Source: Macrostomum lignano
Taxonomy: Eukaryota
Direction: 5' to 3'
NCBI GenBank assembly: GCA_002269645.1
Contig: NIVC01000593.1
Coordinates: forward strand, 57,454 to 121,453
Length of the DNA stretch: 64,000 bases
Shown here: positions 1-14,961 of the stretch, one piece after another
Position numbering within the stretch: the stretch's first letter is position 1
Layout: each line of letters opens with the position of its first letter
Program-made: the position numbers and the translations under genes
The notes under the pieces: generated by a model
Told to the model about the DNA's origin: nothing
What the model saw: only the letters and a program-made list of their open reading frames with translations
Databases searched by the model: none

Positions 1-146
1 ACAAAGCCGATTTCCTTATGGCGAAATACATAGTAAGTACAGGCCCAAAAAAATGGCAGAGTCCGAAATTTCATGTGCACGCAGTCTGAAATTCCATGTG
101 CACGCAGTCTGAAATTCCAAGTGCACGCTAAATATCTTTTACGCAA
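1..146 (+). repeat. Left terminal inverted repeat (truncated by window edge)
   Basis: 1-60 is the exact reverse complement of 14881-14940. Similarity continues degenerately through GTC(C/T)GAAATT...GTGCACGC (three 23-bp copies at 61-129) and CTTTTACGCAA (to ~146). Confidence 0.97.
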
Positions 147-555
147 CGTGATTATTCAGACGAATTGCATATCCACCTGTCCAAAATACAAGTACATAGT
201 AAGTACAGGCGATTCTAGCAATGGTGACACAAACACACTTCAAAGGATTCCATTCAGCAATGACAAATTTACTCCAAAGCTATTCACACATTTCAAGTGT
301 TATTGAAATATTGAAAACTTGTGAATATTATCACCCTTTTGAAGAAAGATAGTAAATGATCTATTCTTGAGTGCCTATAGAATTTTTGCACCAACTTGAG
401 CAGATGGTTTACAGATACTATGTCAACAACTGCGTCAACATGCTTCTTCTTTATACTATATATATATACGAACACACTGACACAGAAAATATTAAATAAC
501 TTAAACCAAGTTTACATTATACTACTTGTTCAACTATACTTACATCTTAAGTGAA

Positions 556-1417
556 ATGAAGCGATCACGTCAGCAGGAATTGGCCGAGCGCTATGTTAAA
601 CAAGGTAAGATAATCACCTACTCTAGTTCAGTTTTCTTTTTTAGATTGACTGTTCGCTATAGTTTAGTTTCTAGATTGATTGTTAGTTCGGTTTCTGTTT
701 AGACCGATCCTCTGTTTGTTCAGTCTCTAGATTGATTGTCTGCTAGTTCGGTTTCTGTTTAGACTAATACTCTGCTAGTTCAGAATTTCTAGATTGATTG
801 TCTGCTAGTTCGGTTTCTGTTTAGACTGATTCTCTGCTAGTTCAGTTTCTATATACATTGTATACATGCACCTATACCAAATTTCCCTCATCTTATCCAT
901 TATTATAGCATTCAAGAATGGTTTCTTCACGCGGCCACCTCCAGATCAGTGCAAACGCATTTGCCACGACACCACCACATCCAATTCTGCTGCAAGAGCA
1001 TCATATTCTACATCTCTCGCCAGAGTAACCTCGATTCATGTCGAGAGACAGACAACTGAGCTAGATCGCATTTACACAAGAACTGATGTTATTCAGTCAA
1101 TTAGGCAGCAATCGAACCCACGACCAACTGACCAACTGCAGTATGCACCACCACCACCATCACCAACCAGCTACAATGACCCAACAAAGCAAACTTGCAG
1201 TAAGCCTACAAGTACCAAACCAACGACAGCAACTGAAACACCATCATCATCAATTGCTATTTCTACCCAAGTTCAACCGCTGCTAAACTCGCCAATTATT
1301 GTACAGAAGGACATCAAGTCTGTAAAAGTCTCTCAAATGAGCACAGGCTTCTACCAAGTAGAATTAGCAAAGACCTGTAATACAACTCAAGTATTTGAAT
1401 ATTGGGACCTATCTTAA
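556..1417 (+). CDS. Maverick ORF1, predicted spliced hypothetical protein of 185 aa: join(556..604,909..1417)
   Basis: ATG at 556 (MKRSRQQELAERYVKQ), donor G|GTAAGA at 605, acceptor TATTATAG| at 908. The phase-1 junction rebuilds the GCA codon in frame with ORF 866..1417. No recognisable domain; Pro/Thr/Ser-rich middle. Confidence 0.6.
640..850. repeat. Degenerate ~55-60-bp direct repeats inside the ORF1 intron
   Basis: CTAGATTGATTGTCTGCTAGTTCGGTTTCTGTTTAGAC recurs 3-4 times. Confidence 0.8.
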
Positions 1418-1664
1418 AAAGACATTTTTTCTAACTCTTCATAAAATTTTGCCAGCAATGTGTCCAAGTAATTGCTCTTTTAGTATATATCAAACAAGTC
1501 TGTAATCAATAATATAATCTCTATAAATTCATTATTCTAAAAATTTCTTTCAATTTTATTCACCATTCATTGAAATTATTTAATTCAATATAAAGTCAAT
1601 ATCTTGTACAGTCATCATTAAACAAAAATTATTAATCCATGCAAATAATTTTTTTTCATACGTT

Positions 1665-2580
1665 TCTTTAGCCATGGTCTGGCTTTTGCCTCAACAGTAT
1701 GATTTAGCTGTGGTCCAGCTTTTGCCTCAACAGTATGATTTAGCTGTGGTCCAGCTTTTGCCTCAACAGTATGATTTAGCTGTGGTCCAGCTTTTGCCTC
1801 AACAGTATGATTTAGCTGTGGTCCAGCTTTTGCCTCAACAGTATGATTTAGCTGTGGTCCAGCTTTTGCCTCAACAGTATGATTTAGCTGTGGTCCAGCT
1901 TTTGCCTCAACAGTATGATTTAGCTGTGGTCCAGCTTTTGCCTCAACAGTATGATTTAGCTGTGGTCCAGCTTTTGCCTCAACAGTTTTTAGCCGTGGTC
2001 CGGCTTTTTTGCCTCAGCAGTATGATTTAGCTGTGGTCTAGCTTAAAACTGCATCAACAGTGATTTAGCTATAGTCCAGGCTTAACTACCTCAACGATGA
2101 TTTAGCTATAGTCAAGGCTTAACTGTCTCAACAGTAATTTTAGCTGTTGTCCAGACTTAACTGCCTCAACAGTGATTTTAGCTGTGGTCCAGGCAACTGT
2201 CTCAACAGGGATTTAGCTGTAGTCCGATTAGCTTAACTGTCCAGTTATTTAGCTGTGAGCCAAGCAGCAGCACCCGTCTCAACAGTGAGAATTAGCTATG
2301 GTCAGCTTTACCTCAACTGTGATTTGGCTGCTGTGGTCTAGCATAACTGACTCAACAGTAATTTTAGCTGTAGTCGTCCAGCTTAACCACCCGTCCAGTT
2401 TTATAACCATGGTCCAGCTTAACCACCGTCTCAACGTACAGCGATTTAGTCGTGGTCCAGCTTAACCGTCTCAACGTACAGTGATTTAGCCATGGGTCTA
2501 GTAGCAATTAACCGTATCAATAGTGATTTAGCCGTGGTCCAGCTTAACTGTCTCAACACAGTAATTTAGCTTAGTCCAAA
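1665..2580. repeat. 36-bp tandem array inside the Maverick, perfect on the left and degenerate on the right
   Basis: Unit TAGCTGTGGTCCAGCTTTTGCCTCAACAGTATGATT; about 9 near-identical copies to ~1990, then indel-rich copies to ~2580. Confidence 0.95.
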
Positions 2581-12745: not shown

Positions 12746-12746
12746 C

Positions 12747-14069
12747 ATGAACCATTTGCTTGGACCTGATATTGCTGCTCTTAAAAGTGAATTGTCGCTA
12801 TTTGATCAAAGTCCTGTTCAGTTTAGTGTTTTGGATAATCGATATACTAACATTCAACCGCAACATGGTATTACAAAAGGATCACCTATCGAATTTGAAG
12901 TTGTGCCTGCAGGCGATTTGTATTTGGATCTACAAGAAACTGTGCTCACGGTATGCTTCAGCGTTAGTGATAGTGAAGGTGAACCTATAGATGCAACGAA
13001 AAATTTTGTTTGTTTGAATAATTTGGTTATTGGAACATTGTTTGAGGACGTTCAATTTACTATTGGCGATACTGTAGTTGAAGGTGGTAGTTTTATGTAT
13101 CCATACAAGGCAATGCTTCTTACATTACTGGAATATGGACATACAGCTCAGAAGGCTGGTTTACTGCCGTGGGGGTTTTACAAGGATACAGCTGGTAAAA
13201 TGAATGCAACAAGTGAAAACGATGGACGAACAAAGAGGCAGGCGCTCATTGCTAACAATAGGCGGTGCACTGTATCGGGGCCGTTATTCTTGGATTTGTT
13301 TCGTCAGCCTCGGTATCTACTATCAAAGACACCACTACGGATCAAGCTCATACCGGCAAAAAGTAAATTTGTCCTGAGCGGGTCAACATTAGAAGCTGGT
13401 GCGGTTTTAAAAGACTATGAGATCAAGTTTTTGCGTGCAGAACTACGATTGCGGTTTGTTCAACCCTCGCCGAGTGTTATCAGTGCACATGCTCATGGAC
13501 TTAAAAGTCACAATGCATTATATCCGCACCGAAGTCTAAGCCTTGGTACGTTTACTATACCCCGAGGATCGTCTAGCCATACGCATGAAAATTTGTTTCC
13601 TAGTGGGGTACCACGGCTTTTATTGATGGCAATCGTAAGCAACAAGGCATTCAATGGAAGCATGGACACAAATCCGTTCAACTTTGAGCATGCAAATGTG
13701 AGCAGCATTGGTGTGTTTGTGAATGGAGACTCGGTACCATCGCGTCCGCTGCAGACAAACTTTGGAGATGATTGTGTGACAGAGTATAATTTTTTGCTAC
13801 AACAGCTTGGAATCTATCTACAGGGACGAGATATTGGATTTAATATGCTGGATTACGCCAATGGTTACTCAATTTTTGCATTCAGTCTTGGAAGTGAACC
13901 TGGTGTCGGACGGGGAGTGCAACTGTATAAGGAAGGAAATGTAAAACTAGAGTTACGCTTCAATGCTGCAACTAGTACCGTGTACAACGTCATATTTGGA
14001 GGTATATTTGACAAGCAACTGCAACTGACTGAACTTCGCGACATTGTTCCTGGCACAGTATGGAAGTAA
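12747..14069 (+). CDS. Major capsid protein (double jelly roll)
   Basis: KSELSLFDQSPVQFSV...SPIEFEV....LYLDLQET, NLVIGTLFEDVQ, YPYKA, WGFYKD, LFRQPRYL, FNFEH, GYSIFAF: typical Maverick MCP motifs; ORF is intact. Confidence 0.95.
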   Translation: MNHLLGPDIAALKSELSLFDQSPVQFSVLDNRYTNIQPQHGITKGSPIEFEVVPAGDLYLDLQETVLTVCFSVSDSEGEPIDATKNFVCLNNLVIGTLFEDVQFTIGDTVVEGGSFMYPYKAMLLTLLEYGHTAQKAGLLPWGFYKDTAGKMNATSENDGRTKRQALIANNRRCTVSGPLFLDLFRQPRYLLSKTPLRIKLIPAKSKFVLSGSTLEAGAVLKDYEIKFLRAELRLRFVQPSPSVISAHAHGLKSHNALYPHRSLSLGTFTIPRGSSSHTHENLFPSGVPRLLLMAIVSNKAFNGSMDTNPFNFEHANVSSIGVFVNGDSVPSRPLQTNFGDDCVTEYNFLLQQLGIYLQGRDIGFNMLDYANGYSIFAFSLGSEPGVGRGVQLYKEGNVKLELRFNAATSTVYNVIFGGIFDKQLQLTELRDIVPGTVWK

Positions 14070-14623
14070 TTGATTCTATCCTAGATCGTGGTGTAACAGA
14101 TCGCTTCCTTCGCAATGTTGTATCGAAATTGTGCGCACATTTTTTAAATGTTGTATTTCTTGGTGTTTTTCCTCAAAACTTTGTTGGTGGACTTAGACGC
14201 TTACCTTTAGACGGTAAAGACTATTTTTTTATCGTTAATACTGACGTCTCCAACCTGCCCGGAAAACATTGGGTATGCGTTTGGGTTTATGGTCATCGAG
14301 CAGGTCGCGGTAGCAAACGACTTGGTGAATATTTTGATTCTCTTGGTCTAGTACCATTGCCAAGAATAGCAAAATGGCTAGGAAAAGAATGTGGAAATTC
14401 GAAAAATTGGTGTTATAGTCGCTTTGCTATCCAAGACCCACAGAGTGGAAGTTGTGGATTTTGGGTAATTTTTTATATTTTTCATAAGTTGACTACCAGA
14501 GGAAACCTAGAGTGTTTTATTCGAAGCGTTTTTAAACGAAATATAATTCGCACTGGTTCGTTTCGATACTTGTATGCTAAATTACGCAATTTTGTTTTAC
14601 GAGTGCTGCCTCAATATTTGTAA
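14060..14623 (+). CDS. Adenain-like cysteine maturation protease
   Basis: IVNTD...PGKHW (His), EYFDSLG (Asp), IQDPQSGSCG (Gln, Cys). Confidence 0.95.
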   Translation: MEVIDSILDRGVTDRFLRNVVSKLCAHFLNVVFLGVFPQNFVGGLRRLPLDGKDYFFIVNTDVSNLPGKHWVCVWVYGHRAGRGSKRLGEYFDSLGLVPLPRIAKWLGKECGNSKNWCYSRFAIQDPQSGSCGFWVIFYIFHKLTTRGNLECFIRSVFKRNIIRTGSFRYLYAKLRNFVLRVLPQYL

Positions 14624-14840
14624 ACTCGCTAATTTGTGCGTCAAATTGTGTTTGTATCTAGTTGAAATATACAATACTGCTTGAAAAGAAGAATTTAAAT
14701 GCGTTAAGTTATACGCGAAATAAGCTTTGTGTCAAATTGAATTTTGGTTGGGCTTGTAATTAGCTGCATTCATTGCGGATAGAATTTAGGTGGATAGACA
14801 GGTGTTTGCGTAAAAATGATTCAGCTAATTGGTTAATTCA

Positions 14841-14961
14841 TTGCGTAAAAGCTAGTTTGCGTGCACGGCAAATTTCAGACTCTGCCATTTTTTTGGGCCT
14901 GTACTTACTATGTATTTCGCCATAAGGAAATCGGCTTTGTGTCAAAAAAACGTATACTACT
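14841..14961 (-). repeat. Right terminal inverted repeat
   Basis: Mirror of the left TIR, with only one copy of the 23-bp subrepeat. Ends in ACTACT, matching the AGTAGT...ACTACT termini typical of Polintons. Candidate 6-bp TSD CTTATA at 14962-14967. Confidence 0.95.

Follow-up and report, generated by a model that had tools for sequence, protein, structure and literature searches.

The first 14,961 nucleotides of a 64,000-nucleotide stretch of the Macrostomum lignano genome (assembly GCA_002269645.1, contig NIVC01000593.1, positions 57,454 to 121,453; the window) hold a Maverick/Polinton copy bounded by terminal inverted repeats. How does such an element, with its credible genes on one strand and a TATA-binding protein (TBP)-like exon among them, keep the expression of its replication genes apart from that of its virion genes? 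Gene control in animal Mavericks is essentially undescribed in the literature reached. An earlier note on this DNA proposed a spliced left block and an intronless right block expressed in two phases. The present analysis supports two promoter classes at the sequence level, with canonical TATA boxes on replication genes and an altered box, TATAAG(C/T), on virion genes. That the element-encoded TBP would read the altered box and switch on the virion genes, from early to late, is a proposal that we consider evenly balanced.

The altered box of the virion genes

The right block comprises six boxed units, four of them with a tightly coupled second frame:

7415..7421, plus strand, box 1, TATAAGC
7436..7879, plus strand, PLA2-domain protein with a basic N-terminus, likely start 7460 (Pfam PF08398)
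7882..8571, plus strand, packaging-type P-loop ATPase, second frame of unit 1, starting 2 nt past the PLA2 stop
8578..8584, plus strand, box 2, TATAAGC
8629..9618, plus strand, putative minor capsid (penton) protein, no Pfam match
9621..9627, plus strand, box 3, TATAAGC
9675..10103, plus strand, protein with an adenovirus pX/mu-like C-terminus (PF05829, E 2.3e-6)
10114..10803, plus strand, 229-aa protein recognized by conservation (ORF10114), second frame of unit 3, 10 nt from the pX-like frame
10852..10858, plus strand, box 4, TATAAGC
10916..11104, plus strand, small Cys-rich ORF, 62 aa, kept in 6/6 loci
11085..12245, plus strand, retroviral-type integrase with chromodomain (Pfam), second frame of unit 4, its start overlapping the small ORF by 20 nt
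12237..12243, plus strand, box 5, TATAAGT, overlapping the integrase stop
12287..12745, plus strand, basic (K/R-rich) putative core protein
12589..12595, plus strand, box 6, TATAAGC, inside the basic ORF and 158 nt before the major capsid protein start
12747..14069, plus strand, putative major capsid protein (MCP), 440 aa, no Pfam match
14060..14623, plus strand, adenain-like cysteine protease, second frame of unit 6, overlapping the MCP frame by 10 nt

We take the two capsid labels from size and position. The packaging ATPase and the adenain-like protease, both with Pfam scores below cut-off, are candidate assignments that gene order and motifs fit.

TATAAG occurs eight times on the plus strand of the element (7415, 8578, 9621, 10016, 10852, 12237, 12589 and 13926) and once on the minus strand. 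TATAAGC is found six times in the right block against 0.40 expected, a number reached in 0/400 first-order Markov simulations, and it is absent from the left block. Distant subfamilies with MCPs 65-81% identical share the gene order of the window and are grouped with it as family A. Five of five family-A representatives carry 5-9 sense boxes and 0-1 antisense, where 0.4-0.8 are expected.

Positional conservation was followed in the window and seven loci of four other subfamilies. The box is kept before the minor capsid, pX-like and MCP genes in 8/8 each, before the small ORF and integrase in 7/8, and before PLA2 and the basic ORF in 6/8 each. It precedes the ATPase and ORF10114 in one locus of eight each. 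The earlier claim that TATAAG(C) marks the right block thus stands through enrichment and conservation, with two sites and an integrase box removed from it. Site 10016 was rejected as a promoter box, being confined to the window (1/8 loci). Site 13926 was rejected too, as it lies under an L-Y-K-E coding constraint, reads TATAAAG in two loci and is absent in one.

The integrase has no box of its own and shares box 4, its frame overlapping the 62-aa ORF. Its expression with the virion genes, as proposed earlier, is therefore retained in the sense that it lies in the boxed block, as a second frame, and it may be packaged into particles. ATPase, integrase and protease, all second frames, are probably made at a low level. 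The small Cys-rich ORF has an amphipathic-looking N-terminus and no Pfam match, and precedes the integrase in families A and B.

In 32/32 right-block boxes the two preceding nucleotides differ from TA, which means that none is a canonical TATATAAG in disguise. In relatives, the two TATAAG matches that precede the SSB-like gene (single-stranded DNA-binding protein; see below) do belong to a canonical TATATAAG. The distance from box to ATG is 41-64 nt in 21 of 27 cases, and the nearest annotated start is 41 nt away. Behind the 27 boxes, 19 upstream ATGs fall at offsets 7-35 and none at 36 or more; with MCP leaders left out, 5.8 out-of-frame ATGs would be expected there (P about 0.003, with the threshold picked after inspection and the sequences related). 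Because upstream ATGs stop at offset 35, the box fits a -30 element rather than initiation inside TAAG. No consistent initiator position was found behind it.

Canonical boxes and splicing in the left block

The left block holds the following features, apart from the TBP-like exon treated below:

457..468, plus strand, canonical TATA run TATATATA, upstream of ORF1
556..1417, plus strand, ORF1, spliced, 185 aa (exon 556-604, intron 605-908, exon 909-1417), no Pfam match
1667..2570, no strand, tandem repeat array of 36-40 bp units in the long intergenic region from ORF1 to the SSB-like gene
3196..3203, plus strand, canonical TATAAATA, its sole occurrence in 1-14961, before the SSB-like gene
3282..4480, plus strand, SSB-like gene, 375 aa with an acidic tail (exon 3282-3589, intron 3590-3660 from RNA-like joints, exon 3661-4480)
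5472..6570, plus strand, internally deleted protein-primed family B polymerase (pPolB), with the zinc-finger/N-terminal part reaching about 6368 and a short remnant of the C-terminus after it
6862..7344, plus strand, dUTPase (Pfam), with its acceptor AG at 6846-6847 and an additional ATG in frame at 6811

Canonical TATAWAWR occurs at four left-block sites (the 457-461 run, 2757, 3196 and 4879) and nowhere in the right block. A canonical box precedes the SSB-like gene in 4/5 related loci examined. The division found, a non-canonical box on virion genes and canonical boxes on replication genes, is of herpesvirus type. The box before the dUTPase is late-type and non-coding in one lineage, canonical in another, and inside coding sequence or absent in the rest.

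Splicing was followed with contigs of three RNA-like runs (three studies) and one DNA-like run (X16) placed on 1-15000. The RNA-like status of the runs is a guess, the contigs carry no start-site, strand or timing information and drop rare forms, and stretches of run X7 without cover were not taken as evidence. A GT-AG joint removing 605-908 is present in 3/3 RNA-like runs and one removing 3590-3660 in 2/3; both are absent in X16. A third joint is not GT-AG and also occurs in the DNA-like run. For the right block, the three RNA-like runs list no splice joint. Their contigs cover both blocks in 3/3 runs and span the right-block intergenic regions, compatible with either separate or joint transcripts. 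These data bear out the earlier description of a left block with splice signals and a canonical box, here two GT-AG introns and the TATAAATA at 3196, and of an intronless right block whose coupled frames overlap or lie at most 10 nt apart. The earlier statement that every credible gene is on the plus strand also agrees with the frame count: 24 of the 28 ATG-initiated ORFs of at least 60 aa in 1-14961 are on that strand, and the four on the minus strand are 61-68 aa long and overlie plus-strand genes.

With the 3590-3660 intron removed, the frames at 3282 and 3650 encode a single 375-aa protein. The acceptor of this intron is conserved in 5/5 relatives, and an acidic tail ends the protein in 5/5 aligned. 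A half-domain model of low confidence (pLDDT 63) has phage SSB as its best Foldseek/BFVD matches (E 1.5e-3), comparison with the PDB is weak (Z up to 3.5, SSB Enc34 at 2.1), and Atlas neighbours are clusters of nucleocytoplasmic large DNA viruses at 0.90-0.92. Searches of PHROGs and a PDB sequence search returned nothing. Modelling therefore gives weak to moderate support for an SSB-like protein. DUF2738 is a possible further link to SSBs; a search for it in that role gave nothing useful.

ORF1 is present only in the window's subfamily and a 95% sister subfamily. Its intron contains 62-bp tandem repeats (window 660-851); these and the array at 1667-2570 are a possible enhancer or origin. Two subfamilies carry a deoxynucleoside kinase between TBP and pPolB (L019:4440-5285 and L026:4493-5278, both minus strand), fused in frame to the TBP exon in one.

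The baculovirus late promoter motif is DTAAG. The box could be the late promoter of a helper virus with its own RNA polymerase, baculovirus-like or giant, used in the manner of a virophage. The TAAG core recurs in the second non-canonical box of this genome (family C, below), and virophages and Gezel/PgVV-14T share promoter motifs with their helpers. However, upstream ATGs at offsets 7-35 that are gone beyond 36 speak against a start of transcription within the motif, left-block expression relies on splicing in the nucleus, and the element encodes a TBP-like protein. We regard a helper-virus promoter as very improbable.

Two further families in the same genome

Family B has an MCP about 31% identical to that of family A. 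No TBP-like or pPolB match was found in six sampled elements, and canonical TATAAATA stands 45-74 nt before the corresponding genes, six per block in 3/3. Family C, with an MCP about 28% identical, carries a TBP-like gene of its own, intronless (PF00352, E 1e-23), and its box is again different: TTAAGAA, found 4-8 times per stretch in 6/6 and never antisense. Stretches of the other families contain a given family's box once at most.

The family C polymerase lies on the strand opposite to the virion genes. The earlier two-block design is kept for its two promoter classes and block-specific splicing, on conservation, statistics and RNA joints, and loses the all-plus layout as part of the mechanism.

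The two classes might be real without being temporal, reflecting tissue or cell-type programmes (for example, germline versus soma) or mere expression strength. RNA-like contigs over both blocks in all three runs would agree with this, whereas the split tracks function exactly, replication and nucleotide genes versus virion genes, in three families. A non-temporal division appears quite improbable.

Other features of these families were noted. Family B elements (L051-L068) have open capsid frames and the small-Cys-ORF/integrase overlap of family A, and one carries a Fic-domain ORF. Family C (L093/L094, L096-L098, L101/L102, L104-L106, L107/L108) is high-copy, with a TBP-like gene ending the virion strand and a PC4-domain gene. 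Among 150 PF00352 matches scored in the genome, most resemble repeated genes of the family C type.

An encoded TBP-like protein and the proposed reading of the box

The TBP-like exon lies within the SSB-pPolB region:

4349..4354, plus strand, conserved internal phase-0 splice donor (inferred), inside SSB-like exon 2
4691..5248, plus strand, TBP-like exon, 185 codons, no initiator ATG, acceptor AG at 4689-4690, phase 0

Profile searches, a structural model (pLDDT 88.9) and Foldseek all return TBP, with a two-lobed fold. In the second lobe, F134, P135 and F153 are retained in 6/6, as is the acidic pair D130/E132. The first lobe has lost one intercalating phenylalanine and carries Tyr57 in place of the other, leaving two of the four (F134 and F153). 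In TBP, the second lobe reads the 5' half of the box and the first lobe the 3' half. If this assignment holds for the element TBP, its changed lobe would face the changed half of TATAAG(C/T). PMC12529657 assigns the proline after the third phenylalanine a preference for T as the first TATA base, and the acidic stirrup the binding of TFIIB.

In the main rival explanation, the box is a weak variant of TATA recognized by host TBP or a TBP-related factor (TRF), lateness arises from replication-raised template number, as in adenoviruses or alpha-herpesviruses, and the TBP-like domain acts elsewhere, in origin binding or as a decoy or repressor. Family B, without a detectable TBP gene, has canonical boxes on the same genes. 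The apparent tethering of the TBP domain to the SSB-like protein, and its fusion to a nucleoside kinase in one subfamily, suggest a replication role. One intercalating phenylalanine is lost. Yet host reading leaves unexplained why each TBP-bearing family has an exclusive non-canonical box while the left block stays canonical. Such copy-number timing on a host-read box is a serious but unlikely explanation. The proposed reading of the box by the element TBP is developed further below.

In a tree with an unsure root and no clade test, family-A TBPs group with unnamed short TBP-like proteins, a 97/94 branch separating them from cellular TBPs and family C. This is compatible with separate captures of TBP by families A and C. 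The short, mostly unnamed proteins (P0005, P0006, P0007, P0010, P0012, P0013 and P0017-P0033) share a Y-x-G-R-P-x-M-L loop with the element TBP. Among viral and metagenome contigs, no relatives of the TBP-like protein were confirmed with the narrower alignment A1; the wider A5 was too loose.

The start of the TBP-like protein

A pyrimidine-rich YAG acceptor stands at codon 1 of the TBP exon, in phase 0, in 8/8 loci (one with a 1-nt shift just after) and in 12/13 further loci, the remaining one lacking the region. A GTRAG donor (L|V-S, phase 0) is found in SSB-like exon 2 in the same 8/8 and in 12/13, L016 being frameshifted upstream. These loci represent about five lineages. At the donor, Val is always GTR and Ser always AGY, with a chance of 0.016 for Val alone and 2e-4 jointly if five lineages are independent. 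The donor is held at one place in 20/21 loci, inside a low-complexity region. Hence, an alternatively spliced SSB-TBP fusion of 517 aa is probably made alongside the 375-aa SSB, with the acidic tail swapped for the TBP core. None of the 13 further loci contains an intronless SSB-TBP gene, and protein-database searches for a transcript-derived TBP or SSB-TBP fusion returned nothing, a weak negative.

A start from a spliced leader only was demoted as an explanation once the in-phase internal donor was found. It survives as a rival in which the leader, by its terminal AUG, starts a TBP of 186 aa that stands alone, the internal donor having a minor role or none. Phase 0 without an ATG fits this exactly. 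The host leader ends in ATG, most acceptors match the reported trans-splice motif YTNCAG, leader-supplied starts are known in flatworms, and no cis joint is listed in the RNA-like runs. Against it stand the in-phase GTRAG donor kept at one place and the preference of trans-splicing for sites where an upstream donor is absent. We rate it as doubtful, though with some substance, and the SSB-TBP fusion can coexist with it.

The start of the polymerase and the host leader

One more acceptor lies upstream of the polymerase:

5399..5400, plus strand, acceptor upstream of pPolB, candidate spliced-leader site

The host genome has 61 exact matches to the 3' part of the published M. lignano leader. In 6/7 loci taken from tandem sites, the match is followed by GTAAG, as in leader genes ending ATG|GTAAG. 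Because the matches run into GTAAG, the host evidently has an AUG-ending spliced leader. Several others (L069-L072, L092) continue into non-GT sequence, as expected of retrocopies of trans-spliced mRNAs. Start codons supplied by spliced leaders are known in flatworms, as reported in PMC8629364 and PMC9851317.

In three subfamilies, the conserved pPolB N-terminus starts immediately at a phase-0 acceptor, with no in-frame ATG before codon 86-119; 2/4 loci tested have an in-frame but unconserved ATG farther upstream. The window's subfamily and one other have a genomic ATG at the homologous start; the acceptor precedes it by 71 or 14 nt and is out of frame with it. The leader AUG would give the same M-P start of pPolB in both states. 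Were pPolB joined in cis to the SSB donor, some subfamilies would make a fusion and others nonsense. Upstream of TBP or pPolB no ATG|GT mini-exon is conserved, and between the two no donor is. Supply of the pPolB start codon by the host leader is thus put forward tentatively, at a little short of an even chance.

A proposed early-to-late switch

Binding of the element TBP to the box, the start sites and the temporal order of the blocks are proposals. In a first tier, host TBP on canonical TATA boxes would give spliced left-block RNAs, among them one unit running from the SSB-like gene through the TBP-like exon (and the nucleoside kinase in some relatives) to pPolB. In a second tier, the element TBP-like domain would bind TATAAG(C/T) about 30-35 nt upstream of the start site and recruit Pol II (RNA polymerase II) factors of the host to the six intronless units. 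Within units, structural ORFs would come first, with ATPase, integrase and protease as coupled second frames. Such an early-to-late switch would be analogous to the TATT promoters of beta/gamma-herpesviruses. The SSB part possibly ties it to replicating DNA, and the window copy would need pPolB supplied in trans. In a bolder version, animal Mavericks repeatedly captured TBP-like genes and co-evolved private TATA variants, the SSB-TBP fusion couples virion transcription to replicating DNA, and pPolB borrows the leader AUG. Taken together, this broader scheme is improbable.

Several observations weigh against the switch and its parts. PLA2 has no preceding box in 2/8 loci, and boxes 5 (Y-K-stop) and 6 (the same I-S codon phase in 5/5) can be partly explained by protein constraint. 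The lobes of the AlphaFold model superpose poorly on TBP, with a TM of only about 0.43 and an rmsd of about 8 Å. The 4348-4691 joint of the fusion is listed in none of the three RNA-like runs, the neighbouring intron being listed in two and depth over the TBP bin being lowest in X7, and no spliced-leader loose ends are among those listed in these runs. Family-B copies also lack pPolB, so the missing TBP may reflect deletion. The contrast among families spans three lineages only, with motifs chosen after inspection, and the family C TBP gene stands behind its own box. Finally, the herpesvirus system needs five further viral factors, and no herpes activator family was found among the ORFs scanned by Pfam.

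A family-specific late box together with an encoded TBP is what a regulated lytic programme would need. The pairing of the two, with the box conserved, is an argument for regarding these elements as viruses whose cycle is staged. If true, the switch would be the late switch of beta/gamma-herpesviruses in a convergent, minimal, one-protein form. Confirmation of a start codon supplied by the leader would bind the host range of the element to animals that use spliced leaders. For tests in this tractable host, the system offers a protein of 185 aa, a box of 7 bp and, to control for cross-specificity, three families within the one genome.

Element identity and copy history

The ends of the element are as follows:

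1..146, no strand, left terminal inverted repeat (arms 1-83/14858-14940 95% complementary; also 106-146/14841-14881)
14841..14961, no strand, right terminal inverted repeat, with an AGTAGT-type terminus at its end

The right end is complete; the first bases of the element precede position 1, where the left arm starts. AG-type termini with inverted repeats and a retroviral-type integrase (PF00665 above cut-off, plus chromodomain) identify a Maverick/Polinton. The PLA2 (PF08398) and pX-like (PF05829) domains, here in two separate ORFs, are those of the alpha adintovirus virion module. Pfam matches above cut-off are TBP, dUTPase, PLA2, adenovirus pX-like and integrase with chromodomain; a C2H2 finger, the P-loop ATPase and the C5 protease (Peptidase_C5, E 0.038) fall below it.

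The frame labelled in the earlier note as the pPolB N-terminus proved to be the left remnant of a gene internally deleted at about 6368/6369. The family does have a protein-primed family B polymerase (PF03175, E 2e-25 in the homologous frame of a relative), of which the window copy retains remnants. The junction is carried at 98-100% identity by 30 of 40 genomic matches, and in three 94% sister loci the matches to its two sides are separated by about 3.2 kb. Identity among near-identical copies is 99.2-99.95%, tandem-repeat region left out. Among sister copies with both ends, the 6-bp flanks (target-site duplication) match in 4/6 and mismatch in 2/6; a seventh copy has no left end. Given the shared pPolB deletion, the near-identical copies and the matching flanks, the element, judged by these sequences, is a young, recently amplified, polymerase-deleted, non-autonomous lineage. 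Three points go beyond the earlier reading: this deletion, the TBP exon that lacks a start codon and has a donor upstream, and the connection that is likely between TBP and box.

Poly-Gly and GPVRS repeats in the pPolB remnant (window 6120-6290) differ in length among near-identical copies, with an open frame of 268-304 aa. The pPolB of one relative (L023:3902-8134) includes an endonuclease VII-like domain. Directly right of the element, at window 16100-19700, lie exons of a host cyclic-nucleotide-binding-domain gene. An Rfam scan of 1-16000 gave no match.

Comparison with known systems

A search of open full-text literature, with subscription journals, the founding Polinton papers and supplements outside it, found no Maverick TBP or late box, and the words TBP and TATA are absent from the text of two Polinton papers looked up, the word promoter from that of three. 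Maverick virions are unobserved to date according to PMC8097293.

The element resembles Mavericks/Polintons and Alpha (PLA2-type) adintoviruses, as described in PMC8502044 and PMC8097293, in its terminal inverted repeats, 6-bp target duplications (here matching flanks in 4/6 sister copies), pPolB, integrase, putative ATPase and protease, capsid-sized ORFs, and PLA2 and pX-like genes. Intact vertebrate Mavericks are reported to be intronless, with two gene modules (PMC8097293). In contrast, the present element has spliced left-block genes, a single coding strand, a TBP-like exon and a family-specific virion box, with PLA2 and pX-like domains in separate ORFs and most of pPolB gone.

Adenovirus late genes use one promoter and heavy splicing, whereas this element has six separate boxed intronless units. 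Like the adenovirus E2 and major late units, it has replication genes in one spliced unit, with an SSB-like protein and a protein-primed polymerase, start codons from upstream exons (predicted here), a putative protease and a pX-like core protein.

For virophages and Gezel/PgVV-14T, promoter motifs in common with the helper virus are described (10.1101/2022.07.28.501842). They are likewise small Preplasmiviricota-type elements with a repeated upstream motif. Their motif, however, is that of a cytoplasmic giant virus, while nuclear splicing and an own TBP-like gene here point to host Pol II. Flatworm spliced-leader operons (PMC8629364 and PMC9851317) have co-oriented genes about 200 nt apart, unpaired acceptors and an AUG-ending leader, as does this locus. 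Here the carrier is an endogenous virus-like element, and leader addition is inferred from sequence.

The closest functional parallel would be the late system of beta/gamma-herpesviruses, in which a viral TBP mimic (ORF24 of KSHV (Kaposi's sarcoma-associated herpesvirus), BcRF1 of Epstein-Barr virus, UL87 of cytomegalovirus) acts with TATT boxes (PMC12529657 and PMC4893493). In both systems replication genes carry canonical boxes, virion genes carry a variant of TATA, and a TBP-fold protein is encoded. The TATT motif and the six-member viral activator set are absent here. The variant is TATAAG(C/T) rather than TATT, and the TBP core, of about 185 aa, is probably joined to an SSB-like protein. 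Unlike KSHV ORF24, the element TBP keeps the acidic stirrup pair.

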